A stretch of DNA of 64,000 nt from Kofleriaceae bacterium (lineage in GTDB: Bacteria; Myxococcota_A; Polyangia; Haliangiales; Haliangiaceae), in contig CBDCCZ010000021.1 of assembly GCA_965215005.1 (NCBI GenBank), positions 1-64,000 of the forward strand, read 5' to 3'. Below are positions 2,977 to 19,491 of this stretch, piece after piece. Position numbers and translations under genes: made by a program. The notes below the pieces were generated by a model. It saw nothing but the letters and a program-made list of their open reading frames with translations, did no database searches and had not been told where the DNA came from. Each line of letters begins with the position of its first letter. Within the stretch, counting starts at the first letter, position 1.

Positions 2977-3068
2977 CGAGCAATCCCACGTTGGCTAGAT
3001 GTAAGTTGCATTAGTACGATTCGTGCGGGCATGACGAACAGGGGGCGGCGCATTGCGCCGGCGTGAGC

Positions 3069-4116
3069 ATGGCCAAGAGTTGCATAGGACTGGATATCGG
3101 CTCGAGCAGCGTCAAGGCGGTGCAGCTCAAGCGCAGCAAGCGCGGCGTGCAGCTGCAGGCCTTTGGCGTCGAGCCGCTCATGCCGCAGACGATCGTAGAC
3201 GGCACGATCATGGATCAGAGCGCCGTGGTCGATGCGATTCGCACCTTGTGGAGCAGGCTGCGACTCAAGCAGAAAGATGTCGCCATCGCGATCGCTGGGC
3301 ACTCGGTGATCATCAAGAAGATCAACCTGCCGGCAATGAGCGAAGACGAGCTTGCCGACCAGATTCAGGTCGAAGCGGAGCATCACATTCCGTTCGCCAG
3401 AGACGACGTCGAGATCGATTACGCGGTGGTCCGCAAGCAAAACGCCAGCGGTCAGATGGAGGTGGTTTTGGTGGCCGCCAAGAAAGAGGTGGTCGCCGAC
3501 TACACGCAAGTGGTGCGCGATGCGGCGCTCAATCCGGTGGTCGTCGATGTTGCCGCGTTCTCGTCACAGAACGCCTTTGAAGCCAACTATGAGCTCGAGG
3601 CCGGGGAGACGGCGGTCTTGATCGTGGTGGGCGCGGCGATCTCCAACATCAACATCGTGCGGGATGGGGAAAGCCTCTTTACCCGCGACGTCACGATTGG
3701 CGGCAACTCTTTCACCGAAGAGATTCAAAAGCAGCTCAACGTGGCTCAGGACGAGGCGGAAGCGTACAAAGTGGGCGGCTCGTTCGATGAGCAAGGCGTG
3801 GTCCCGCAGGAGGTCGAGCGCATCATCGAAGGCGTGGCCGAGACCATGGCGGGGAGAGTTTCAGCGCTCACTGGATTTCTTCCTGGCGACCGCCAGCGAC
3901 ACCAACGTTAGTCGAATCATGTTGGCGGGCGGCAGCGCCAAGATAGGCGCGCTGCATCGCGCCATCGAGCGTCGGTCGCGCCTGCCGGTCGAAGTCGTTG
4001 ATGCTTGGCGACGCATCCAGGTCGACCTCAAGCTGGACACGGGATATTTGCAAGCCCACTCGCCCGAGGCGTTGGTTGGCCTTGGCCTAGCCCTGCGGGC
4101 GCCAAACGACAAGTAG
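3069..4116 (+). CDS. pilM: Type IV pilus assembly actin-like protein PilM (one +1 frameshift at G4 3851-3854)
   Basis: IGLDIGSSSVKAVQL, VIIKKINLP and GGNSFTEEIQKQL; the C-terminus (EFQRSLDFF...LAGGSAKI...GLALR) continues in the 3664 frame. Confidence 0.93.
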
Positions 4117-4126
4117 AGCCACGCAC

Positions 4127-4762
4127 ATGATCAAGATTAACCTTCTGCCGCAACGGCGGTCACGCAAGGTCGACAAGGGCCAACAGTCGCTGATGCTGGG
4201 GCTGCTCATCGTCATTGCCGCGGGTGCGCTGCTGTTCTTCTTGGTGCACCGGCCCCTGCGCGGCGAGATTGAAGAGCTCGAGCGCACCAGCGCCAGATTG
4301 CGCGCCGACAACAGCCGTCTCGAGAAGAACGTCCAAGGCTTCGACGAGCTCGAGAAGGCAGTTCAGGCGGCCAAAGAGCGCTCGGGCTCGATCTTGACGC
4401 TGTCGAAGGCACGCGCGGTTCCCGCTCACATGTTGTGGGAGCTCTCGCAAATCCTCACCACCTCACGAGCACCGACGATGACCCAGCAGATGGCGGAGCG
4501 CGTCGAGCAAGACCCAAATCGCGAGCTCGCCAGCGACTGGGATCCCAAGCACGTATGGGTCACCTCGTTCACGGAAAAACAAGGTGAGTTCAAGCTCGAG
4601 GGCGGCGCGCAGTCCGATGGCGACATGACCCAGCTGGCCAAGCGGCTGCAGGCCTCGGTGTACTTCGACAACGTGATTCCCGAAGGCGGTATCGAGGCCT
4701 CGGACAAGAACAGCGGGATCACGTTCTATCGCTTCACCATTTCGGGACGGGTGGTGTACTGA
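4127..4762 (+). CDS. pilN: Type IV pilus alignment protein PilN
   Basis: MIKINLLP PilM-binding motif, one TM helix, coiled coil, ferredoxin-like C-terminus; position in the operon. Confidence 0.93.
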   Translation: MIKINLLPQRRSRKVDKGQQSLMLGLLIVIAAGALLFFLVHRPLRGEIEELERTSARLRADNSRLEKNVQGFDELEKAVQAAKERSGSILTLSKARAVPAHMLWELSQILTTSRAPTMTQQMAERVEQDPNRELASDWDPKHVWVTSFTEKQGEFKLEGGAQSDGDMTQLAKRLQASVYFDNVIPEGGIEASDKNSGITFYRFTISGRVVY

Positions 4763-5563
4763 TGGCCTCGGGGAGTAGCGATTTCGTCAAAGACCTAGCG
4801 CGCCGTCCGCCACGTCAGAAAGTGGCGATCTTGCTCGGTGTGCTGGGTTTGCTGGGGTTTCTATACTGGCAGTTCTTCTATTCGGGACTCACCGAAGAGC
4901 TCGACGGTGCCGTCGCGGAAAAGGCTTCGCTGGTCCAGAAGTTCGAGGAGTTGCAGCGCAAGCAAAAACAGATGCGCGCCTATGCAGAAGAGTACGAGCA
5001 GCTGCAGGCGACGATTCGCGCTAACGCGCGGGGCGCTGCCGACGGAGGCGGAATTGCCGGCCTTCTTTGATCATTTGCAGCGCAAGGCGGGTGAGGCCGG
5101 TGTGAATTTGCGCCGTTGGGATCGCAAAGCCGAAGAGCCCGTGGGGGAATACGTCAAAGTACCGGTGAGCATCGAGATGACCGGCACCTTCTACCAGCTG
5201 CTCCGGTACTTCTCGCTACTGTCTCCCAGCGGTGCAAGCAGTGCTGCAAACGAGCGTATCGTCTCGGTTGAGAACATCGAGCTGCGCGATCCAAAGATCG
5301 AGAACGACGCGGTGCTGCTTACGGCGCGCTTCACGGCGTCGACGTTCAGGCAAGACTCTGACGCGCCGGTGCCCGAGCTCGACAATGTGAGCGGCGGCAA
5401 AGTCGAGCAGGCAACGAAGCTGCGCGAGGAGCGCGTGGAGGCAGCGACGGGCGCAGGCGGCGATGAAGCCACTGCACCGGCTGGCACTCCGGCCAAAAAG
5501 CCCGTAAACCCCTCAGCGGCGGGCGCTGAGCGGCTCACGAATCCAACTCCGGAGGGCAACTGA
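4762..5563 (+). CDS. pilO: Type IV pilus alignment protein PilO (one +1 frameshift at G4 5030-5033)
   Basis: TM and coiled coil in the 4762 frame, then ALPTEAELPAFF...PVSIEMTGTFYQL...RIVSVENI...ASTFR in the 4838 frame. TGATG overlap with pilN. Confidence 0.9.
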
Positions 5564-5565
5564 AC

Positions 5566-6282
5566 ATGCGCGTGCCCACGTCAAGAGTTGCTGCATTGCT
5601 GATGATCGCCGTTGCGGCGATTCACCTCGGCGGCTGCGGTGAAGACGAGCCACCCGCCGAACCGACGACGAAGCCGGCCGCAAACAAGAAGCCAAACAAT
5701 CCTCAGAAGGGCGCAGGTGGCAAGAGCGCAGAGCTCTTCACGTACGTCAAGATCGAGGACAAAGTCGCAGAGGATGAAGCGGCGGCGATCCGCCATCGGT
5801 TCGTCGTCGGCGATTTCGCGCCGGATCCTACGGGCGGCGAACGTCGCGATCCGTTTCGTTCGTACGTGGTGGACGCGCCCGGCCTCTCGGGCTCGGTCGA
5901 AGCAGCGCCCATCCGAGGAACCGAGGTCTGCACCGCGGAAAACATGGTGGCCTCCAACTACTCGCTTCGCGATCTGCAACTGGCTGGCATCGTTTTACGC
6001 GGCACGCGCAGCTACGCGATGTTTACGGACACCGCCAACTTTGGCCACATCCTGCGGCGCGGCGACTGTCTCGGTAAAGAGAAGGCGCGCGTGGCGGTCA
6101 TCGGCGATGGCTTCGTAAAGCTGGAGCTCGTGCCCGATCCCGCGCCCGGGCAGCCAAGCGACGGTGCGACTACGGAGATAACCAGGCAGCTGCATCCCGA
6201 GGAGCTCGGTCTCGATGAAGCCATCGCGGATCCGCCCTCTGAGCCGGCTGAGCCAGCGGCGCCAACCCCGGCAGGTCCATGA
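5566..6282 (+). CDS. pilP: Type IV pilus lipoprotein PilP
   Basis: Lipobox LGGC, RRDPFRS motif, LQLAGIV...GHILRRGDCLGK; lies between pilO and pilQ. Confidence 0.9.
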   Translation: MRVPTSRVAALLMIAVAAIHLGGCGEDEPPAEPTTKPAANKKPNNPQKGAGGKSAELFTYVKIEDKVAEDEAAAIRHRFVVGDFAPDPTGGERRDPFRSYVVDAPGLSGSVEAAPIRGTEVCTAENMVASNYSLRDLQLAGIVLRGTRSYAMFTDTANFGHILRRGDCLGKEKARVAVIGDGFVKLELVPDPAPGQPSDGATTEITRQLHPEELGLDEAIADPPSEPAEPAAPTPAGP

Positions 6283-6523
6283 TTCGCACGGTCTGCGCTT
6301 CTATATGCGAGACGATTTCCTGGCCTCGATTCGACACCCATTCGAATTGAGCCAAGAAGGTTTGCGATCTGGCTGACTGCACGGCGATAATTTCAAGCTG
6401 AACGTGAGTGCCGGCGATCGTCGGGTCGTCGCTTAGGAGGTTGCTTCCGCTCACCGCGCGCCGTTGGGGAAAGGCGCGCTCCCGACGTTCCAGAGGGACG
6501 AGCCACGCTCCGAGGAGAGATGG

Positions 6524-9500
6524 ATGAATCGGAAGAGCAGACCGTCACGTCGACCGCGTTGCGCCTGGGGGGCGCTCGCCGCTGCGGTGATGGCCCTTGC
6601 AAGCGCACCATCGCTGGCAATCGCGCAAGACAACGTGATCCGCGCTATCGACTATCGCGACGACAGCGGGGGTACACAGGTACGGATTCGGGGCACCCAG
6701 ACGCCCACCTTTACTGTGTACAAGCTGGATCGCCCAGCGCGCATCGTGGTCGACATCGCCGGCGCAGCGATCGATATCGATGAGAAAGCCACCTATGACG
6801 TCAATAGCTGGGCGGTGGGGCAGGTTATCGCTCACGCCTCGAGCGGCTCGGGGCACTCAACCGTGCGGGTTACGGTGGGCATGGCGCGCCCGGGCTCCTA
6901 CAAAGTAAAAGCGAGCGGCAATGATCTCATCGTCACGGTCAAGCCGCGGGATCCGCCGCCAGAGACGGCATCGATCGGTGGTGACGTCGCCGCGGCCAAG
7001 GCTGACGCAACCGCTGCGCGCGCCGATGCGCAAGCGGCTCGCGCCACCGCCGAGGCGGCGCGTCGTCAAGCAGCCGCAGCGAACGCGACCGCAAGCTCGG
7101 TTCGTGCCGATGCGGAGCGAGCCGAAACACTGGCTGCTAGTAAAGCCGCTGCTGCGAAGCGAGCCGTAAGCGCAGCCAAGGCAGCGCAAGCGCGTTCGTC
7201 GGCAGACGCAAGCGCCGCGCGCGCCGATGCTGAAAAGGCAAAGCGCGAGGCGGCGGCAGCGCGAGCGGAAGCCGCGCGAATCAAGGCAGAAGCCGAGACG
7301 GCGCGTGCCGAGGCAGCTCGCATCAAGCGCGAGGCGGCGACTGCTCGTGACGAAGCGCAGCGTGCCAAGGCTCAGGCCGAGCAATCGCAGGCCGAAGCGA
7401 GCCGAGCGCGCAATCAGGCGCAGGCGCAGATCGCACAGGTACAACGAGAGCTCGAGCAAACGCGCACCAAGGCCTCTCTACGGGTCGCCGCGGCCGACAA
7501 TGCGCTTCTCGAGGCGAAAACGCTGATGGATTCGGCCAAGGCAACCCTCGCGCGCGCCGAAGCCGAGAAGCAGGGGGCGCAGAAGGCGCAGTCTGCGGCC
7601 GAAGCGGCGAGCGGCGCCGCGGCGGAGCGTGAGCGAGCGGCCGCAAAGGCGCAGACGCAAGCGGAGACGACGGCACAGGCGGCCAATCAGGCGCTTGCCG
7701 AGGCGAGTCGCGCGCGTCGAGCGGCGGCGAGCGCCGATGCCAGTGATCGCGTCGCGGCAGAAAATCATGCCGCCAAGCTCATGGCTGCAGCCGAGGCCAA
7801 GCAGCGGGTCGCGGAGCGCGCCGCTCGCGAAGCCAACGTGCAACGCGCTGAGGCGGAGAAGGCGGCGGCAGAAGCGCTCGCACGTCGCAGCACCGCCGAA
7901 GAGGCGGCGCGGCTCGCCGAGAATCGCGCTGCGCAGGCGCGTGAGCGTAAAGCAGATGCCGAGCGCGCGGGCAGCCGAGCCGATCAGCAGCGGCAGCTCG
8001 CGGAGGACCGTGCAGCGGCAGCAGAGCGGGCGGCGGCGGAGGCCGATGCGCGCGCCGCGCGCGCCAAAGCGCTTCGCGAGCGCGAAGAAGCGGCGTATGC
8101 ACAGGTTCAGCAGGCCGGGGCCGAAGCGGAGCGGCGACGGACGGCATTGGCTAGCGCGGTGGCAGCGCTCGAAGCCTCACAGCGCGATGCCGAGCGCGCG
8201 GCCGCAGAAGCCGCGCTTCGCCGCGATGCAGCCGAAGCGGCCGCCATCGCCGCTCGCGACGCCAAAGCGGCGAAGCGTTCGCAGCAGGAAATCAGCCAAG
8301 CGCGCGCAGAAGCGCAGCGTCTCAGTCGCGAGCGCGATCAGGCGGAAAAGGCAGTGGCGCGCGCCAAGCAGCAGGTGGTGAGCCAGCAAGTCGATGTGTC
8401 GCGGCTCGCGCAGCGGCGCGAGCGAGCGGCGAGTGAGCTTGCTGCTCTCGATGCAGCGGCCGCCGAAGCGCGCCAGCGGCGTGAGGGCGAGGAAACCGCG
8501 TTGGCGGCGCTGGCCGAGCGGCGTCGACAGGAAGAGCTCGAGCTCGCCAAAGCGCAGAGTCAGCTCGAGCAGGCGCGGGCGGCGCGGGAAGCGGCTGAGA
8601 CGGCGGCGGCGGAGGCCGCGCGGGTGGCGCGCTCGGAACTGGCAAAGGCTGCCGAAGCACGGCAAGCGCGAGCTTCGCAGGAGGCAGCGGCGCGTGACGC
8701 GGCGGAAAAGATGGCCGCGGCAACGCGCGCGCGTGCCTCCGAAGAGAAGGCTGCGCGCGCAGCGGCCGAGGCGCGTGTGGCAGAAGAAGAGGCGGCGCGT
8801 CTTGCGGCCAAAGAACGAGCCTCGGCCGAAGCGGCAGCAACGCTAGCGAAGAGCCGGGCGAGCAGCGAGGAGCAGGCGGCGCGTCTTGCGGCTGAAAATC
8901 GAGCCACGGCAGAAGCGGCGGCGAAGCTAGCGAAGAGTCGAGCGAGCAGTGAGGAGCAAGCGGCGCGTCTTGCGGCTGAAAATCGAGCCACGGCAGAAGC
9001 GGCAGCGAAGTTGGCAAAGGGCCGGGCGAGCAGCGAAGAGCAGGCGGCGCGTCTTGCGGCTGAAAATCGAGCCTCGGCAGAAGCGGCGGCGAAGCTAGCG
9101 AAGAGCCGGGCGAGCAGTGAGGAGCAGGCGGCGCGTCTTGCGGCTGAAAATCGAGCCACGGCAGAAGCGGCAGCGAAGTTGGCAAAGAGCCGGGCGAGCA
9201 GCGAAGAGCAGGCGGCGCGTCTTGCGGCTGAAAATCGAGCCTCGGCCGAGGCGGCGGCGAAGCTAGCGAAGAGGTCCGCTCGTGCGGCAGAGGCCTCAGC
9301 AGCGCCGCGTCGTCCCGTCGAGGTAGCGACAACCACTCCGGTGGCGCTGGTTGCCGACGCACCGGCTCGCGTGCGGGGCGTGACGTTTGCCGACGACGCC
9401 GAGAAGGCGCGGGTCGTGCTGAAGGTCGATGGCGCCGCAGAGCCCAAGATCGTCACCCGTCGCGGCCGAAAGGTGGTGCTCGAGGTCGATGCGGCCACGC

Positions 9501-11122
9501 TCGATGCCGCCTCTGAGCGGCGCCTCGATACGCGTAAATATCGCGGACCGATTCAGTCGATTGCCACGTTTCGTGATCCTCGTAAGCCGTCTCGAGTGCG
9601 GGTCGTCGTTGAGCTCGATCAGCCGCGTAGCGGCACGCTAACCCGCCACGGGGATACCTATTCCTGGGAGTTTCGCAAAGCACTCGCGACGGTTCCGCAG
9701 GGTTCCACCGAGGGGCCTCGAAACGACTCCGTTCGCAGTCTCCCTTCACCGGTGATCGGCGGCTACGGTGCCACCTCGGCTCCTATTACGCAGAAAACCG
9801 TCGCGCAGCTATCGCCAGGCGGAAGACGCGTCTATCGCGGAACCAAAATCGACCTCGACCTCAAGGACGCCGACATTCACAACGTGTTGCGGCTTTTGGC
9901 CGACGTTGGCGGCGTCAACATCGTCATCCCTGATGAGATTCGCGCGCGGGTGACGGTGCGGCTCCGGCGCGTGCCATGGGATCAGGCGCTGGAAGTCATC
10001 CTTGCTTCAAAGGGCCTGTGGTACCGGCGCGAGGGCAACATCTACCGGGTAGCAACGCGCCAAGAGCTCGATGAGGAGGCCGCCGCCGAGGCAGAACGCC
10101 TCCGCGCGGCGGTGCAAGCAGAGCCACCCGAGCCCGAAATTTTCACGTTGAACTATGCGGTCGCAGACCAGGTTCGGCCGCAGTTGGTTCCGCTGCTGTC
10201 CCCCAAGGGCCGTATCGAGATCGATCCGCGAACCAACTCCCTCATCATTAACGACATCGGCGCGCATCGCCGGCGCATCATCGACCTTGTGCGTCGGCTC
10301 GATACCCAGACGCCGCAAATTCAGATCGAGGCGCGCATCGTGGAAGCCCGCTCGACGTTCGTGCGCGAGTTCGGCATTCAGTGGGGCGGCAGCGCCGTTG
10401 GCTCCGCCGAGGGCGGCAACGCCACTGGATTGGTCTTTCCCAACCGGGTGGCGGTGGCCGGCGGTGCCGACGATGGTGCCACGGTGGCTACCGGCGTGCG
10501 CGCGGTGCCTTCTGACTTTGCGGTCAACCTGCCGGCCGCCGTGGGTAGCGGCTCGGGTGGTGCGCTCGGGATCGCCCTCGGCTCGGTAGGCGGCAACTTC
10601 AACATCAACTTGCGCATCTCGGCGTTAGAAGATTCGGGCTCGGTGCGGATCATCTCGGCGCCGAAGATCACCGTGCTCAACAACATCGCTGCGCAGATCA
10701 GCCAAGGCGTGTCGATTCCCATTTCGGTAATCTCTGCGGCTGGCGTGCAGACGCAGTTCGTACAGGCCGACCTGGCGCTGGAGGTGACTCCGCACGTCTC
10801 GCAGCGAGATTGCTCAATCGCGATGGACCTGCAGGTATCGAAGAACGAGGCCGACTTCGTCAATACCGGCGCTCGCGGCGATCCGACCATTCTGCGCAAG
10901 GAAGCCAGCACCACCATCCTCGTCGCCGACGGCGAGACCACGGTGATGGGCGGCATCTACACCCGCAACACCGGCCTCGCATACAGCAAAGTGCCGTTCC
11001 TGGGCGACATCCCCATCCTCGGTTGGCTGTTCAAGAATCGCCGTGAAAACGACGAGCGCACCGAGGTGCTCGTGTTCATCACCCCAAAAATCACTAACAA
11101 GGCGTTTCTGCGGTGCGAATAG
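6524..11122 (+). CDS. pilQ: Type IV pilus secretin PilQ with a very long Ala-rich coiled-coil insertion between two AMIN domains (about 1532 aa)
   Basis: Signal peptide, AMIN (YKLDRPARIVVDI), coiled coil, second AMIN (RVRVVVEL), N0 (IDLDLKDADIHNVLRLLADVGGVNIV, VPWDQALEVIL), N3, and secretin domain (QIQIEARIVEA, VPFLGDIPILGWLFK, VFITPKI). ATG at 6524 follows GAGGAG. Confidence 0.95.
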   Translation: MNRKSRPSRRPRCAWGALAAAVMALASAPSLAIAQDNVIRAIDYRDDSGGTQVRIRGTQTPTFTVYKLDRPARIVVDIAGAAIDIDEKATYDVNSWAVGQVIAHASSGSGHSTVRVTVGMARPGSYKVKASGNDLIVTVKPRDPPPETASIGGDVAAAKADATAARADAQAARATAEAARRQAAAANATASSVRADAERAETLAASKAAAAKRAVSAAKAAQARSSADASAARADAEKAKREAAAARAEAARIKAEAETARAEAARIKREAATARDEAQRAKAQAEQSQAEASRARNQAQAQIAQVQRELEQTRTKASLRVAAADNALLEAKTLMDSAKATLARAEAEKQGAQKAQSAAEAASGAAAERERAAAKAQTQAETTAQAANQALAEASRARRAAASADASDRVAAENHAAKLMAAAEAKQRVAERAAREANVQRAEAEKAAAEALARRSTAEEAARLAENRAAQARERKADAERAGSRADQQRQLAEDRAAAAERAAAEADARAARAKALREREEAAYAQVQQAGAEAERRRTALASAVAALEASQRDAERAAAEAALRRDAAEAAAIAARDAKAAKRSQQEISQARAEAQRLSRERDQAEKAVARAKQQVVSQQVDVSRLAQRRERAASELAALDAAAAEARQRREGEETALAALAERRRQEELELAKAQSQLEQARAAREAAETAAAEAARVARSELAKAAEARQARASQEAAARDAAEKMAAATRARASEEKAARAAAEARVAEEEAARLAAKERASAEAAATLAKSRASSEEQAARLAAENRATAEAAAKLAKSRASSEEQAARLAAENRATAEAAAKLAKGRASSEEQAARLAAENRASAEAAAKLAKSRASSEEQAARLAAENRATAEAAAKLAKSRASSEEQAARLAAENRASAEAAAKLAKRSARAAEASAAPRRPVEVATTTPVALVADAPARVRGVTFADDAEKARVVLKVDGAAEPKIVTRRGRKVVLEVDAATLDAASERRLDTRKYRGPIQSIATFRDPRKPSRVRVVVELDQPRSGTLTRHGDTYSWEFRKALATVPQGSTEGPRNDSVRSLPSPVIGGYGATSAPITQKTVAQLSPGGRRVYRGTKIDLDLKDADIHNVLRLLADVGGVNIVIPDEIRARVTVRLRRVPWDQALEVILASKGLWYRREGNIYRVATRQELDEEAAAEAERLRAAVQAEPPEPEIFTLNYAVADQVRPQLVPLLSPKGRIEIDPRTNSLIINDIGAHRRRIIDLVRRLDTQTPQIQIEARIVEARSTFVREFGIQWGGSAVGSAEGGNATGLVFPNRVAVAGGADDGATVATGVRAVPSDFAVNLPAAVGSGSGGALGIALGSVGGNFNINLRISALEDSGSVRIISAPKITVLNNIAAQISQGVSIPISVISAAGVQTQFVQADLALEVTPHVSQRDCSIAMDLQVSKNEADFVNTGARGDPTILRKEASTTILVADGETTVMGGIYTRNTGLAYSKVPFLGDIPILGWLFKNRRENDERTEVLVFITPKITNKAFLRCE
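8849..9268 (+). repeat. Five tandem in-frame 84-bp (28-aa) repeats inside pilQ
   Basis: Units start at 8849, 8933, 9017, 9101 and 9185; each encodes K(S/G)RASSEEQAARLAAENRA(T/S)AEAAAKLA. Confidence 0.97.
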
Positions 11123-11154: not shown

Positions 11155-12804
11155 ATGGTGTCTTCGGCCTCGGCGCGACCGCTCTTCCTCGTCGGTTTCA
11201 TGGCGACGGGCAAGAGCACCGTTGGTCGTTTGGTGGCGCACCTCTTGGGGATGCGTTTCATCGATCTAGACGAGCGTATCGAACGCGCGGCGAGCACGGC
11301 GGTGCGCGACATTTTCACCGCCGAGGGCGAAGCGGGATTTCGCAAACGCGAAGCCGCTGCATTGAACGAAGTGCTCGCCGGCCCGCCGGCGGTGGTTGCA
11401 ACCGGTGGCGGGACGCCGTGCTTTGGCGACAATCTCGCGCGCATGCGCAGCGCGGGTCTCGTGGTGGCGCTTACCGCTTCCCACGATTGTTGGCGAGAAC
11501 GTGCCGCGAAAGCCGCGGCCGTGCGACCGCTCTTGGAACGCCCCCAAGAAGAGGTGCAAGCGCTCTACCGCGATCGCATGCCGTGGTATCGCCAGAGCCA
11601 CGCCGTGGTGGTTACCGATGGCGTCACGCCCGAGGCAGTCGCGCGTCGTATTGCGCGAATCGCTGCCGGTGCGGGTGCTGCCATCGCGACGGAATCGCTG
11701 CCACAGGCTTGCATCGTGGCTACCGCCGATGCCCCGTATCCAGTGCTCATCGCGCGCGGCTCGCTCGTGGAGGTTGGGGCTACAATTCGTCGCGTCGTCG
11801 GTTCTAGCGTTGCGCGTATCGGCCTTATCTCCGATGACAACGTCGCGCCTCTGTATGGCGAGCGCGTACGTGCCGCACTGCATGCAGTGGGGTTCGCGGT
11901 GGTGAGCGCCACCGTGGCGGCGGGCGAAGCTGCCAAGAACGTGGGGGAATTCGCCAACCTCTGCAATGCGATGGTGGCTGGTGGCCTCGACCGCAGCTCG
12001 GCAATCGTCGCGCTCGGGGGCGGCGTGGTCGGCGATCTCGCGGGGTTCGTCGCGGCCTCGCTCTATCGCGGAATTCGCTGCATCCAGGTGCCAACGACGC
12101 TACTCGCCATGGTGGATTCCGCCATCGGCGGCAAGACCGGTGTCAACATTGCAGCCGGAAAAAACCTCGTAGGCGCCTTTTGGCAACCGTCGCTGGTGCT
12201 GGCCGATCCCAAGGTCTTGCAAACGCTGCCGGTTCGCGAGCGCCGCGCCGCCTACGGCGAGCTGGTCAAGTATGCGCTTCTCGATGGCGAGGAGCTGTAT
12301 GCGAAGGTCGATGCGCTAGCCTCGTGGATAGCCGAGCCCGCGCTCGATCGCGATGCTGCCGTTCCCGTCGAGCTCACCGAGGTGATCCATCGTGCTGCGG
12401 CCATCAAGAGCTGGATTGTCACCCGCGACGAGCGCGAGCAAAGCGGCGAGCGGGCACTTCTAAACCTCGGCCACACCGTCGGCCACGCCATCGAGGCCGC
12501 TACGCAGTATCAGCGGTACTTGCACGGCGAGGCGGTCGCACTCGGGCTGCTGGCCGCGGCACGAGTCTCGGCACACCAAACGCTATGCGATGCGGACCTC
12601 GAGCAGCGCATCGCCAGAACGCTCCAGCGCGCGGGTCTCGACACCAAGCTAACGCCTTGGCTCAGCGATGAGGTCCTTGCCTACATTGGAGTCGACAAGA
12701 AGCGCTCAGGAACGCAGCTGCGATTCATTACCATGCAAGACGTGGGCGTCGTTGGCAGTACGCTCATCGAGCAACGGGAGCTCCTGCAGATTTTGCGGTG
12801 CTGA
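11155..12804 (+). CDS. aroB: Bifunctional shikimate kinase / 3-dehydroquinate synthase (AroK-AroB fusion)
   Basis: N-terminal GFMATGKST P-loop, GEAGFRKRE and ATGGG (AroK); C-terminal GGGVVGDLAGF, PTTLLAMVDSAIGGKTG, LNLGHTVGHAIE and HGEAVALG (AroB). Confidence 0.95.
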   Translation: MVSSASARPLFLVGFMATGKSTVGRLVAHLLGMRFIDLDERIERAASTAVRDIFTAEGEAGFRKREAAALNEVLAGPPAVVATGGGTPCFGDNLARMRSAGLVVALTASHDCWRERAAKAAAVRPLLERPQEEVQALYRDRMPWYRQSHAVVVTDGVTPEAVARRIARIAAGAGAAIATESLPQACIVATADAPYPVLIARGSLVEVGATIRRVVGSSVARIGLISDDNVAPLYGERVRAALHAVGFAVVSATVAAGEAAKNVGEFANLCNAMVAGGLDRSSAIVALGGGVVGDLAGFVAASLYRGIRCIQVPTTLLAMVDSAIGGKTGVNIAAGKNLVGAFWQPSLVLADPKVLQTLPVRERRAAYGELVKYALLDGEELYAKVDALASWIAEPALDRDAAVPVELTEVIHRAAAIKSWIVTRDEREQSGERALLNLGHTVGHAIEAATQYQRYLHGEAVALGLLAAARVSAHQTLCDADLEQRIARTLQRAGLDTKLTPWLSDEVLAYIGVDKKRSGTQLRFITMQDVGVVGSTLIEQRELLQILRC

Positions 12805-13622: not shown

Positions 13623-13979
13623 GTGTTCGAACAAACGCTGAAGAAGGTCGTCGACAACGTCGACGGTGGGATCGGTGCCGTCGTCATGGGATTCGACGGC
13701 ATCAAGGTCGAGACGTACATCCGCGACGATGATCGAATCGACATCGATACCATCGGCATGGAGTTTTCCTTCATCCTCACGCAGATCAAGAAAGCTGCGG
13801 AGATCCTCGAGGTCGGCTTCGTGCACGAGGTCACCATCAAGGCCGAGCAGCTCACGCTCAGCATGCGGCTCCTCAACGAGGACTACTTCATGGCGGTGGC
13901 GCTGCGCAACGATGGCAACTTCGGCAAGTGCCGCTATCTGATGCGAATGGCCGCGCCTCAGCTCACTGCCGAGTTCTGA
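13623..13979 (+). CDS. mglC: Roadblock/LC7 protein, MglC-like polarity factor
   Basis: [27 protein letters not shown]...[11 protein letters not shown] roadblock pattern; its position downstream of pilQ and upstream of accBC and sgmX matches Myxococcus mglC. Confidence 0.8.
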
Positions 13980-16479: not shown

Positions 16480-16563
16480 CGGGTATCGTTGGGTTCAAAG
16501 CATACACCCTCCGTCGGGTGACGCGGTGTCGTGCGGCTGGAGCTCACGCGCCGCGAGGGCAAC

Positions 16564-19491
16564 GTGGCCTTCAATAAGAATAAGGTCATGGAGGCTGCTC
16601 GTCGCTTCGTCGAGAAGGGACAGCACGACAAAGCCATCAAGGAGTACCTCCGGGTCGTAAAAGAAGACCCCAAGGACGTCCGAATCTGGCTGAAGATCGG
16701 CGACCTCTACGCCAAAAAAGGCGCCAAGCAAGAAGCCACTGAGACGTACCTCAAGGTGGCGCGCTTCTACAGCGAGCAGGGCTTCTACTTGAAAGCGGTC
16801 GCTGTTTACAAGCAGATCCTCAAGCTCGACCCGCGCCTGGTGGAGGTCAACCTCAAACTCGCCGAGCTGTATCGCCAGCTCGGCCTGCTCTCGGATGCAA
16901 TGCAGCATTTCGAGATGGTGGCGGCTCACTTCCATCGCGAGGGCAAGACGAAGGAGGCGCTGGCTACGGTGCGCCAGCTCGTCGACCTCGACCCAGACAA
17001 CGTCGCCACGCGTATCAAGCTCGCTGAGCTGTACTCGAAAGAGCAGATGACGCAGGAGGCGATCGCGGAGTTTGCTCAAGCTTGCGAATATCTGCGCGCG
17101 CAGAATCGCCAAGATGACTTCGTCAAAGTAGCGGAGCGGCTTCTCTGGCACCAGCCAGACAACATCGACCTCAGTCGTGAATTGGCCACCTTGTACCTGC
17201 GGCGCAGTGACCCGCGTCGCGCGCTGCAAAAGCTACAAACGTGTTTCAAGGCCAACGCTCGCGATATCGAGACCCTGGCGCTGCTCGCGCAGGCGTTCCA
17301 GGCGCTCGATCAAAAGACCAAGACGGTGTCGGTGCTCAAGGAGCTCGCGCGGGTTCTGCATGAGGACAATCAGCGCGACAAGGCTGCTGAGGTGCACCGC
17401 AAGATCCTCGTCTATGTACCGCAGGACGCCGATGCGCTGGCCTATCTCGGCCTCGATCGTGCTGAGGTCGATGCACCCGGACCCGCCAAACGGCTGGCCA
17501 TTACATCGAGCGATCTCCCGCAGGTGAGTCGCGCAGGTCAGCCAACCGGCTCCGTGCCGCTGCTGCGTCAAGAGTCTCCTGCGCCCGTGGAAGCGACCTT
17601 CGACGACGTTGCGGTGGAAGAGGTGGACGAGGAGGACAGCAGCTTCGTCGCCGATCTGCAATTTGAAGACGAAAGCAGCTTTGCCGAGTCGAGTCGAGCG
17701 GGTGAAACGCACTCGGATGAGATTAATAAGATTCTTACCGAGACTGACGTCTACGTGAAATATGGGCTGCACCAGAAGGCCAGCGAGCATCTGCGGCGCA
17801 TTTTCGAGCTTGACCCCGATAATGTCGAAGCGCGCGAGCGCCTCAAGACGATTTACTTATCGCAGGGCCGCGAAGAAGACGCCATCGCCGAGCTGATGCA
17901 ACTTGCCGAGCTCACGGCGAGCGTTCATCCCGGCGCCGCCGAAGACTATCTGCGTGAAGTGCTGTCCGTGGATTCCTCTCATCAACCCGCCTTCGAAATG
18001 GCTCGTCGCTTCCGCCTCGACTTGACGGCCTCTCCTGAGCTGGAAATGGTGGATGAGCTCTCCGACGGCGCGATTCTGCTCGACAACGGCACCGGTGAGA
18101 CCACCCCGGTGGAAGAAGATGACCACCTCGATTTCGCGGGCACCGGTCCGGCTCCGCAAAGCCGCTACAGTGATGTCTTCGAAGCCGTCGCATCCTTTGA
18201 CCTCGAGCTCCCAGACGGCGAGACCGGGGCGGAGATCGAGGAACGCTCCGGCATCACCATGGAGGTCTCGGTCGATCAGGTCGAAGACATGGTGGAGCTC
18301 GAAGATGCGGTGGAGCTGATCGAAGATCTAGAGCTCGATGGCAACTTGGCGACGACTGGCGAAGCAACCAGTGAGCTCGGCACCGCAGAACGCTACGACT
18401 ACTCCTATGAGAGTGACTTGCCGCCTGCGGTGGCATCGCCGGATTACGAGCTCGATTTCGATCCCGACGACGCAGCCGCGTTCGATGCTGACATTGAACC
18501 CGGCCAGGCACGGCAGATGGATTCGCTCGAGCGCGATGGTGCGGCCGCTGCAGCGGCCGATGACGAAGACGAGCTGGCGGGAACGTACGAGGGGCCAGCG
18601 CAGAGTTGGCTCGAGGCGCAAAGCGACGCAGATGGCTTTCATCCGCAAGAAACCATCCCTGGCGAAGGAGGATGGGGCGGCGGAGCCACCGACGTCGGGC
18701 GCATGCCGGGGGACTTGGACTCTTCGGCCGCTGGCGTGTCGCTCGAGGATGACTTGGACGAGGCCGATTTTTTCATCAATCAGCGGCTCTATCCAGAAGC
18801 GCAGGACATCCTGCGTAGCTTGTTGCAGCGCTATCCCAGCCATCCGCTGGTGATGGCAAAGCTGGCTGACGTCGAGGCAATGGCCGACGCGGAAGATCCA
18901 GACCTCGGCGGGCTCGACGAGGCGCTAGAGTCGATTGGTCACGATGACTCCGGTATCGAGCCCAGGGTTTCTGTGGCAGCAGAGTCGCCGAGCAAGCCTG
19001 CGGTGCTGCTCGAGAAACCTATCGAAGACGAAGACGCGGAAACGCACTACGACCTCGGTCTTGCTTACAAAGAGATGGGCCTGTATGGCGAAGCCATCAA
19101 GGCATTCGAGAAGGTCGCCCAACTTCCAGGTCGCGAGGTGCAATGCCGATCGATGATCGGTTTATGTCATCGTGAGCAGGGCAACTTGTCGGAAGCGGTT
19201 CACCACTTCAAGTCTGCGCTTCACGCTGGCTCCATCATAGAGCGCGAGAAGCTCAACCTCTTTTATGAGATAGGCGCCTCCTACGAGGCCATCGGCGATA
19301 CCTCCGAGGCGCTGTATTATTTTGAGCTGGTCCTAAAGAAGGACGAATCATTTCGCGACGTCACCGATCGGCTCGACGCGCTCGCTGCCAAAGTGGGAGC
19401 CGATACTCGCCGCAATCCGGCCGGGCCAGAGGATGCGGATGCTGCCATTGATAGTCTCCTTGCCGAAGAGACCGGCGGCAGGCGTCGTTGA
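16564..19491 (+). CDS. sgmX: Large TPR protein with acidic linkers, SgmX-like type IV pilus activator
   Basis: N-terminal TPR array (AIKEYLRVVKEDPKDVRIWLKIGDL, GFYLKAVAVYKQILKLDP), middle TPR (ETDVYVKYGL) and C-terminal TPRs (THYDLGLAYKEMGL). Follows accC as in Myxococcus. Start GTG at 16564 is inferred. Confidence 0.8.
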   Translation: MAFNKNKVMEAARRFVEKGQHDKAIKEYLRVVKEDPKDVRIWLKIGDLYAKKGAKQEATETYLKVARFYSEQGFYLKAVAVYKQILKLDPRLVEVNLKLAELYRQLGLLSDAMQHFEMVAAHFHREGKTKEALATVRQLVDLDPDNVATRIKLAELYSKEQMTQEAIAEFAQACEYLRAQNRQDDFVKVAERLLWHQPDNIDLSRELATLYLRRSDPRRALQKLQTCFKANARDIETLALLAQAFQALDQKTKTVSVLKELARVLHEDNQRDKAAEVHRKILVYVPQDADALAYLGLDRAEVDAPGPAKRLAITSSDLPQVSRAGQPTGSVPLLRQESPAPVEATFDDVAVEEVDEEDSSFVADLQFEDESSFAESSRAGETHSDEINKILTETDVYVKYGLHQKASEHLRRIFELDPDNVEARERLKTIYLSQGREEDAIAELMQLAELTASVHPGAAEDYLREVLSVDSSHQPAFEMARRFRLDLTASPELEMVDELSDGAILLDNGTGETTPVEEDDHLDFAGTGPAPQSRYSDVFEAVASFDLELPDGETGAEIEERSGITMEVSVDQVEDMVELEDAVELIEDLELDGNLATTGEATSELGTAERYDYSYESDLPPAVASPDYELDFDPDDAAAFDADIEPGQARQMDSLERDGAAAAAADDEDELAGTYEGPAQSWLEAQSDADGFHPQETIPGEGGWGGGATDVGRMPGDLDSSAAGVSLEDDLDEADFFINQRLYPEAQDILRSLLQRYPSHPLVMAKLADVEAMADAEDPDLGGLDEALESIGHDDSGIEPRVSVAAESPSKPAVLLEKPIEDEDAETHYDLGLAYKEMGLYGEAIKAFEKVAQLPGREVQCRSMIGLCHREQGNLSEAVHHFKSALHAGSIIEREKLNLFYEIGASYEAIGDTSEALYYFELVLKKDESFRDVTDRLDALAAKVGADTRRNPAGPEDADAAIDSLLAEETGGRRR

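Follow-up and report, generated by a model that had tools for sequence, protein, structure and literature searches.

A lineage-wide coiled-coil-like arm between the AMIN domains of the type IVa pilus secretin PilQ in Myxococcota

The stretch of DNA analysed here (64,000 nucleotides from a Kofleriaceae bacterium, hereafter the window) encodes a PilQ secretin whose two AMIN domains are separated by a 770-residue, proline-free helical arm. The arm-bearing PilQ is a real, lineage-wide and apparently undescribed variant of a known machine, and the arm may act as a lateral, folded-back tether to peptidoglycan. The mechanical question of what keeps a secretin in place when the pilus retracts is still open and has mostly been studied in species with short linkers, and many Myxococcota spend 230-2000 extra residues per PilQ subunit on a coiled-coil arm.

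The pilQ gene and its surroundings

A single open frame containing pilQ extends over 6464-11122 of the + strand. The likely start is the ATG at 6524, with GAGGAG six bases upstream, which gives a protein of 1532 aa (Table 1); the frame is intact, as the first-pass annotation of this DNA had stated. The protein thus belongs to the family of PilQ, the secretin of type IVa pili. It carries a secretin domain together with N0, Secretin_N and N-terminal AMINs, and its gene belongs to a pilMNOPQ operon. Pfam profiles matched AMIN (twice), STN, Secretin_N and Secretin, and the NCBIfam profile TIGR02515 scored 397 bits (cut-off 284). The order of AMIN, N0, N domain and secretin and the pilMNOPQ operon are shared with PilQ of M. 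xanthus (PDB 3jc8), P. aeruginosa and Neisseria. The AMIN folds match 3jc8 (M. xanthus PilQ) and 4av2: the AlphaFold model of AMIN1 (pLDDT mostly >90) aligned with the AMIN of AmiC (Z 13.2, rmsd 2.3, 104 aligned residues), and that of AMIN2 with Neisseria PilQ B2 (Z 14.4) and M. xanthus 3jc8 (Z 14.2). Exact database look-ups of the protein returned no match; in the ESM Atlas the best score was 0.88, to AMIN clusters of Myxococcota, and serves as a lead only. A profile search of the genome found no second AMIN protein.

Table 1. Features of the pil region of the window
Feature	Position	Strand	Basis
pilM, frameshifted within a G run (about 3851-3855)	3063..4116	+	Pfam
pilN, normal length, 211 aa	4127..4762	+	Pfam
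pilO, frameshifted within a G run (about 5030-5033)	4762..5563	+	Pfam
pilP	5566..6282	+	Weak PF04351 match below cut-off, operon position
pilQ, arm-bearing secretin of the type IVa pilus (1532 aa)	6524..11122	+	Pfam, TIGR02515
Sec-type signal peptide of PilQ (basic N-region, hydrophobic core, Ala-x-Ala)	6524..6628	+	By-eye reading
AMIN domain 1, distal end of arm	6629..6958	+	Pfam, AlphaFold, structure alignment
770-residue proline-free Ala/Arg/Glu/Gln/Lys heptad helical arm	6983..9292	+	Composition, periodicity, AlphaFold
Helix break T1, recurring position in Haliangiales arms	7727..7747	+	AlphaFold, arm comparison
Helix break T2, midpoint of conserved 115-residue module and of predicted antiparallel hairpin (~7922-8623)	8270..8290	+	
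84-bp / 28-aa (four-heptad) tandem array, 5.8 copies	8790..9273	+	Repeat analysis
AMIN domain 2, adjoining the channel	9365..9691	+	Pfam, structure alignment
PilQ segment 3' of AMIN domain 2	9839..11119	+	Pfam and TIGR02515 profile matches

Upstream of pilQ lie pilM, N, O and P, and directly 3' of it is a gene for shikimate kinase fused to 3-dehydroquinate synthase (11155-12804), followed further downstream by a Roadblock/LC7 gene (13623-13979) and a gene for a 986-residue TPR protein (16531-19491). The genome contains pilB, four pilT and 12 pilin-motif genes. Frameshifts, mostly in G or C runs, were also present in a sigma-54 response regulator upstream of the pil genes (1979-1984, 2716-2720). 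Those in pilM, pilO and the regulator are probably sequencing errors of a low-coverage assembly, because contigs of run X1 break at exactly those homopolymer runs. Another proline-free frame, 767 residues long and rich in Glu/Lys/Arg/Gln, was noticed in the genome at G000 C4:78155-81652 (- strand).

Composition and periodicity of the arm

Initially described as about 770 almost proline-free codons with 7/14-residue periodicity, the arm proved to consist of exactly 770 codons, with 39% Ala, 13% Arg, 13% Glu, 7% Gln and 5% Lys, no proline and six glycines. Hydrophobic power at period 3.5 was 2.7 (maximum of 30 shuffles, 2.3) and charge power at period 6.9 was 5.2 (maximum 3.3); for large hydrophobic residues the local 3.5 power reached a z of 5.7. 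Self-identity peaked at lags 14 (0.31) and 28 (0.39) over a background of ~0.20, and the final ~160 residues form a 28-residue repeat of 5.8 copies. A period-3.5 signal was found in most of 49 arms examined. Taken with the lack of proline and with indels that keep the register (see below), the heptad periodicity marks the arm as coiled-coil-like, and AlphaFold, proposed earlier as a check, predicts the insert to be helical and ordered. A disordered linker is ruled out by these models.

Foldseek returned no match to the arm at E<=0.001, and the matches to PrgA, Smc, RipA and chemoreceptors are generic helical bundles. Clusters of helix-capping residues showed no overall enrichment (469 vs 476 in shuffled sequences). 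The trimer motif R-h-x-x-h-E was seen 67 times against 52 expected and not at all in the window, and was given no weight.

An assembly chimera, another concern raised at first, is ruled out by a contig of run X1 that spans 5710-8896 with no differences and by long arms in many relatives. A further X1 contig spans 9217-11400; the two contigs are separated by a gap within the 84-bp array, whose copy number is therefore unconfirmed. As run X1 may derive from the source sample, homology is the stronger evidence against an artefact.

Distribution and history of the arm in Myxococcota

The first set comprised 53 loci from 60 relatives and the window; in 34 of them a single frame encoded N0 and two AMINs. 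The gap between the AMINs was 239-968 residues in 33 of these 34 frames and 40 residues in the remaining one. Among database homologues listed, which included only proteins of >843 residues, 114 of 120 had two AMINs, every gap being 219-868 residues. The titled relatives (best 80 of 242) were Kofleriaceae and Haliangiales, with long arms. Sorangium and Polyangium types have linkers of 16-36 residues. A scan of the phylum matched 216 of 251 genomes, and 60 loci were taken from it in such a way that family coverage was sought and long frames were favoured, hence the counts given here are not frequencies. From 185 distinct N0-bearing frames, 31 were N-terminally cut and another 14, several of which were frameshifted, contained at most one AMIN, leaving 140.

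Of these selected full-length Myxococcota PilQs, 92 have arms of 231-2024 residues, a nine-fold range, and 48, of Sorangium and three-AMIN types, have linkers of 11-119 residues; open frames reach 2830 residues. The long form is present in 27 of 39 family codes. The length survey proposed in the first-pass annotation has thus turned the supposed single-gene oddity into a feature of the lineage. The distance from AMIN2 to N0 stays within 35-103 residues. PilQ of Anaeromyxobacter has three AMINs with gaps of 27-69 residues.

In an unrooted tree of the N0-secretin core (134 rows, FastTree), the arm changed state three times, as compared with a mean of 39 for shuffled states, and a second unrooted core tree (42 rows, IQ-TREE quick) also gave three changes. 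The Polyangiaceae-type short clade was nested among long-arm proteins in the core trees. One gain and two losses would fit the history of the arm in these unrooted trees, and the short linker of Polyangiaceae is likely to have arisen, most simply, by arm loss; if the root lies among the short forms, the arm would have been lost at least twice. A case in point is PilQ of Sorangium cellulosum So ce56 (L148), which likewise has two AMINs and a core nested among long-arm proteins but differs in its linker of 19 residues. In L044, a family member whose two AMINs lie 40 residues apart, the arm has apparently been lost a second time.

Constraint on the arm

Among close pairs with arm identity >0.7, seven had indels, and 14 of their 19 indels were multiples of seven residues; at arm identity >0.45 the proportion was 39 of 116. 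Tandem repeats occurred in 37 of 199 arms, 27 of them with periods that are multiples of seven. The pairs and arms in these tests are related by descent, and their significance is therefore overstated. Over 13 pairs, arm dN/dS was 0.07-0.62 and exceeded that of the core in every pair; these values indicate that the arm is under purifying selection. The longest proline-free run covers 96% of the arm at the median. Arm length shifts by 164-180 residues between close relatives. AMIN1 is retained and no less conserved than AMIN2: mean identity among the 92 long-arm proteins was 36% for AMIN1 and 30% for AMIN2.

Breaks and fold-backs

The AlphaFold model of AMIN1-arm-AMIN2 consists of five helices (arm pLDDT 50-80, pTM 0.33), the breaks lying near residues 225, 403-408, 583-586 and 751-757 of the protein, and doubles back at the second of these. 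The third break, T2, is the centre of a 115-residue module that 40 of 92 arms contain, with few exceptions as a single copy; none of the heptad-block shuffles has it. The module is mostly confined to Haliangiales and carries conserved exposed Arg and Glu residues. In 39 arms T2 lay at 0.29-0.87 of arm length, which excludes a single symmetric hairpin returning AMIN1 to the side of AMIN2. A similar break, T1, was found 172-220 residues upstream of T2, in seven-residue steps, in most of 114 arms, the range being bounded by the search window. The flanks measure 68-629 and 96-478 residues and, together with the T1-T2 spacing, fit no single fixed zigzag.

When residues 360-700 were modelled separately (341 residues), mean pLDDT rose to 93.5, with 96-98 around T2 and a pTM of 0.60, and the monomer model formed an antiparallel hairpin over its residues 108-341. 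It aligned with the antiparallel coiled coil of Smc over 229 residues (rmsd 2.0, Z 13.3), although such Z values can be generic. Single-chain AlphaFold models tend to double long helices back on themselves. Charge covariation across T2 was most negative (-0.051, a small value) at the register of a tight hairpin, the best of 31, with heptad aliases at -11 and +10, and profile complementarity at the tight-turn register ranked second of 46. Mutual information gave no antiparallel signal across T1 or T2 at an effective depth of 75-85. Asn was found at position a 37 times and at position d seven times, which fits parallel dimers. Around hydrophobic a/d pairs, g and e residues carried opposite charges with an odds ratio of 3.2 (1.09 at the same lag overall), and since this signal is also present inside the predicted T2 hairpin (odds ratio 2.7), it cannot separate parallel from antiparallel pairing.

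The sequence signals for strand orientation are mixed, and sequence support for the hairpin is modest. On these models, an antiparallel hairpin of ~230 residues is predicted at T2, with weaker support for another at T1, and a straight 110 nm rod is therefore improbable. The reach of about 110 nm proposed at first is best taken as an upper limit for the extended arm, since both the two conserved breaks and the AlphaFold models suggest that the chain folds back. If both turns reverse it, 250 - 180 + 337 residues would give ~60 nm net, as compared with 115 nm for the extended arm at 0.15 nm per residue.

Width of the periplasm

The spacing between the membrane helix and the core of PilN was scored at 100 of 122 loci, 22 being unscorable. 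Its median was 54 residues with short and long PilQ alike, with ranges of 50-55 at 40 short-PilQ loci and 51-58 at 60 long-PilQ loci, even where the arm has 2000 residues. Whole PilN length does correlate with arm length; in the longest cases the extra residues are a C-terminal tail, which in family code f30 is of low complexity (Pro/Ala-rich, 90-170 residues). A wider periplasm is thus unsupported, since the spacer is the same with or without an arm, and those early readings that require one are weakened. The unchanged PilN spacing argues against the arm as the vertical strut of a taller machine, and as AMIN2 already lies beside the channel, the arm would have to lie sideways or fold.

Comparison with known systems

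PilQ of M. xanthus has three AMINs on what the available text of PMC10653833 calls 'flexible linkers', unlike the 770-residue heptad arm of the window. The cultured Haliangium ochraceum DSM 14365 has a PilQ (WP_152629427.1; Hoch_0252, D0LHN1) of the same architecture, including the T2 module, but its arm is shorter (500 residues), has T2 ~175 residues in, leaving no room for T1, and lacks the T1 segment; the protein is annotated merely as a secretin.

The SlpA / OmpM / Omp-alpha connectors likewise combine an outer-membrane barrel, a coiled-coil stalk and an N-terminal wall-binding domain (PMC9388160, as far as available), and by inference the arm may work in a similar way. However, SlpA/OmpM are described there with an SLH domain, a trimeric porin and a vertical 28 nm stalk fitted to the periplasm, whereas the window PilQ has AMIN and secretin, Pfam finding neither SLH domain nor trimeric porin barrel in it, and its second wall-binding domain already adjoins the barrel. 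Helical regions rich in Ala and charged residues also occur in TolA domain II and next to AMIN in delta-proteobacterial 'AMIN + TolA-like charged helix' proteins (architecture viii of de Souza 2008), which the accessible part of PMC2572700 sets apart from PilQ. The window PilQ gave no match to TolA families in Pfam or NCBIfam, and its signal peptide looks cleavable by eye.

The same work lists, without comment in the part available, a 1125-residue PilQ of Plesiocystis (PMC2572700). The word 'coiled' is absent from the main text of the myxobacterial pilus papers PMC6060248 and PMC13190605, and the available portion of PMC7541494 holds nothing on the arm. In the full-text literature searched, which included few subscription papers, no description of a PilQ arm was found and no paper on that of H. 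ochraceum, while supplements may list PilQ lengths; to this extent, the original impression of an undescribed architecture, unlike that of characterised PilQs, is borne out. The present analysis adds the unchanged PilN spacer, the tests of heptad indels and selection, the fold-backs predicted for the arm and its probable loss in Polyangiaceae.

Possible function of the arm

PilQ is a 12-15-mer. In M. xanthus and P. aeruginosa its AMINs bind peptidoglycan at the septum and the pole and bring the protein to these sites (PMC5285504, PMC10653833, both available in part); anchoring of PilQ against twitching force has already been proposed (PMC5285504). Our preferred, still tentative, reading is that the arm is a lateral, folded-back coiled-coil tether that anchors the pore to the wall ~60 nm away. 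The arm would lie sideways in the periplasm and fold back at the two conserved turns, with AMIN2 as the local wall anchor beside the pore, as in ordinary PilQ, and AMIN1 at the tip as a distant one. The 12-15 arms, perhaps paired in their unmatched stretches, would act as guy-ropes that distribute the retraction load across more of the wall, and the hairpins might unzip when pulled. The long peptidoglycan tether first proposed for this gene thus remains the best reading, except for its straight 110 nm form, against which the two conserved breaks speak.

Instead of folding back, the arms of neighbouring subunits might pair as straight parallel dimers, giving 6-7 spokes of ~115 nm, merely hinged at T1 and T2, which would space pilus machines or link them into a polar lattice. 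The predominance of Asn at a over d and the opposite g/e charges fit such dimers, as does the lack of a mutual-information signal for the hairpins; in a parallel homo-oligomer, moreover, indels need no partner indel, and the three arm segments do vary widely. We nevertheless consider these spokes rather unlikely, in view of the g-e signal inside the predicted hairpin, the very high confidence of the T2 prediction and the length changes between close relatives, which are hard to reconcile with a ruler. It is similarly doubtful that the arm helps in assembly or serves as a scaffold for docking, either as a fishing line by which AMIN1 catches septal peptidoglycan before the secretin inserts or as a rail on which the T2 module binds a periplasmic partner protein. 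One AMIN is enough for polar assembly in M. xanthus (PMC10653833, available part), the T2 module is limited to 40 of 92 arms, mostly of Haliangiales, and no partner gene was seen in the pil operon; on the other side stand the role of AMINs in bringing PilQ to septum and pole (PMC10653833, PMC5285504) and the conserved exposed Arg and Glu of the module.

An arm that is a near-neutral linker, growing by slippage of heptad repeats with only helicity and solubility kept, would account for the wide length range, the tandem repeats, the excess of arm over core dN/dS and at least two losses (if the root lies among the short forms). Such a linker is improbable given dN/dS below 1 in all 13 pairs, indels in register, the almost complete exclusion of proline, the conserved module and the fact that 27 of 39 family codes have kept an arm which costs each subunit 230-2000 residues. 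Finally, the arms might bridge a periplasm of unusual width or lie against one another as a cage or sleeve round the machine. Alanine-rich helices can pack into sheets, which would suit a sleeve, and a wide periplasm has a parallel in the SlpA/OmpM stalks, whose length tracks periplasm width (PMC9388160, available text). Both are quite improbable, as the PilN spacing is unchanged, the AMIN2-to-N0 distance stays within 35-103 residues, and a closed cage would require arms of more uniform length.

Should the arms prove to be tethers or springs, a well-studied machine would gain a new periplasmic element. As a bolder and doubtful extension of the tether, the ancestral Myxococcota pilus machine might have had 12-15 extensible arms of 35-300 nm contour length radiating under the wall and folding at conserved turns as load-bearing springs, each retraction partly unzipping the hairpins and thereby damping and spreading force over a large patch of peptidoglycan. 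On that view, Myxococcus and Sorangium, the organisms that serve as models, would be exceptional in their short linkers. Against the tether stand the nine-fold range of arm length and the PilQs of Polyangiaceae and the three-AMIN type, which have no arm, so that no fixed length is needed. The arm is directly testable, as the cultured H. ochraceum has one.

Variant arms

Some individual proteins deviate from the common form. Four (L036, L037, L042 and L079) have one AMIN only; where AMIN2 would be expected, they have a short stretch that is helical and Pro-rich. In family code f30 (L164-L171) the PilQ frames have 2255-2830 residues, and the arm of L164 apparently consists of repeated modules of ~190 residues with short turn motifs. 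The arm of L055 contains 11 Leu-x-x-x-Asn-x-x-Leu heptads, the classic pattern of Asn at a, whereas those of its relatives are Ala-rich. The arms of L165, L166, L194 and L196 bear a net charge of about +100 to +265, while the majority are near-neutral.
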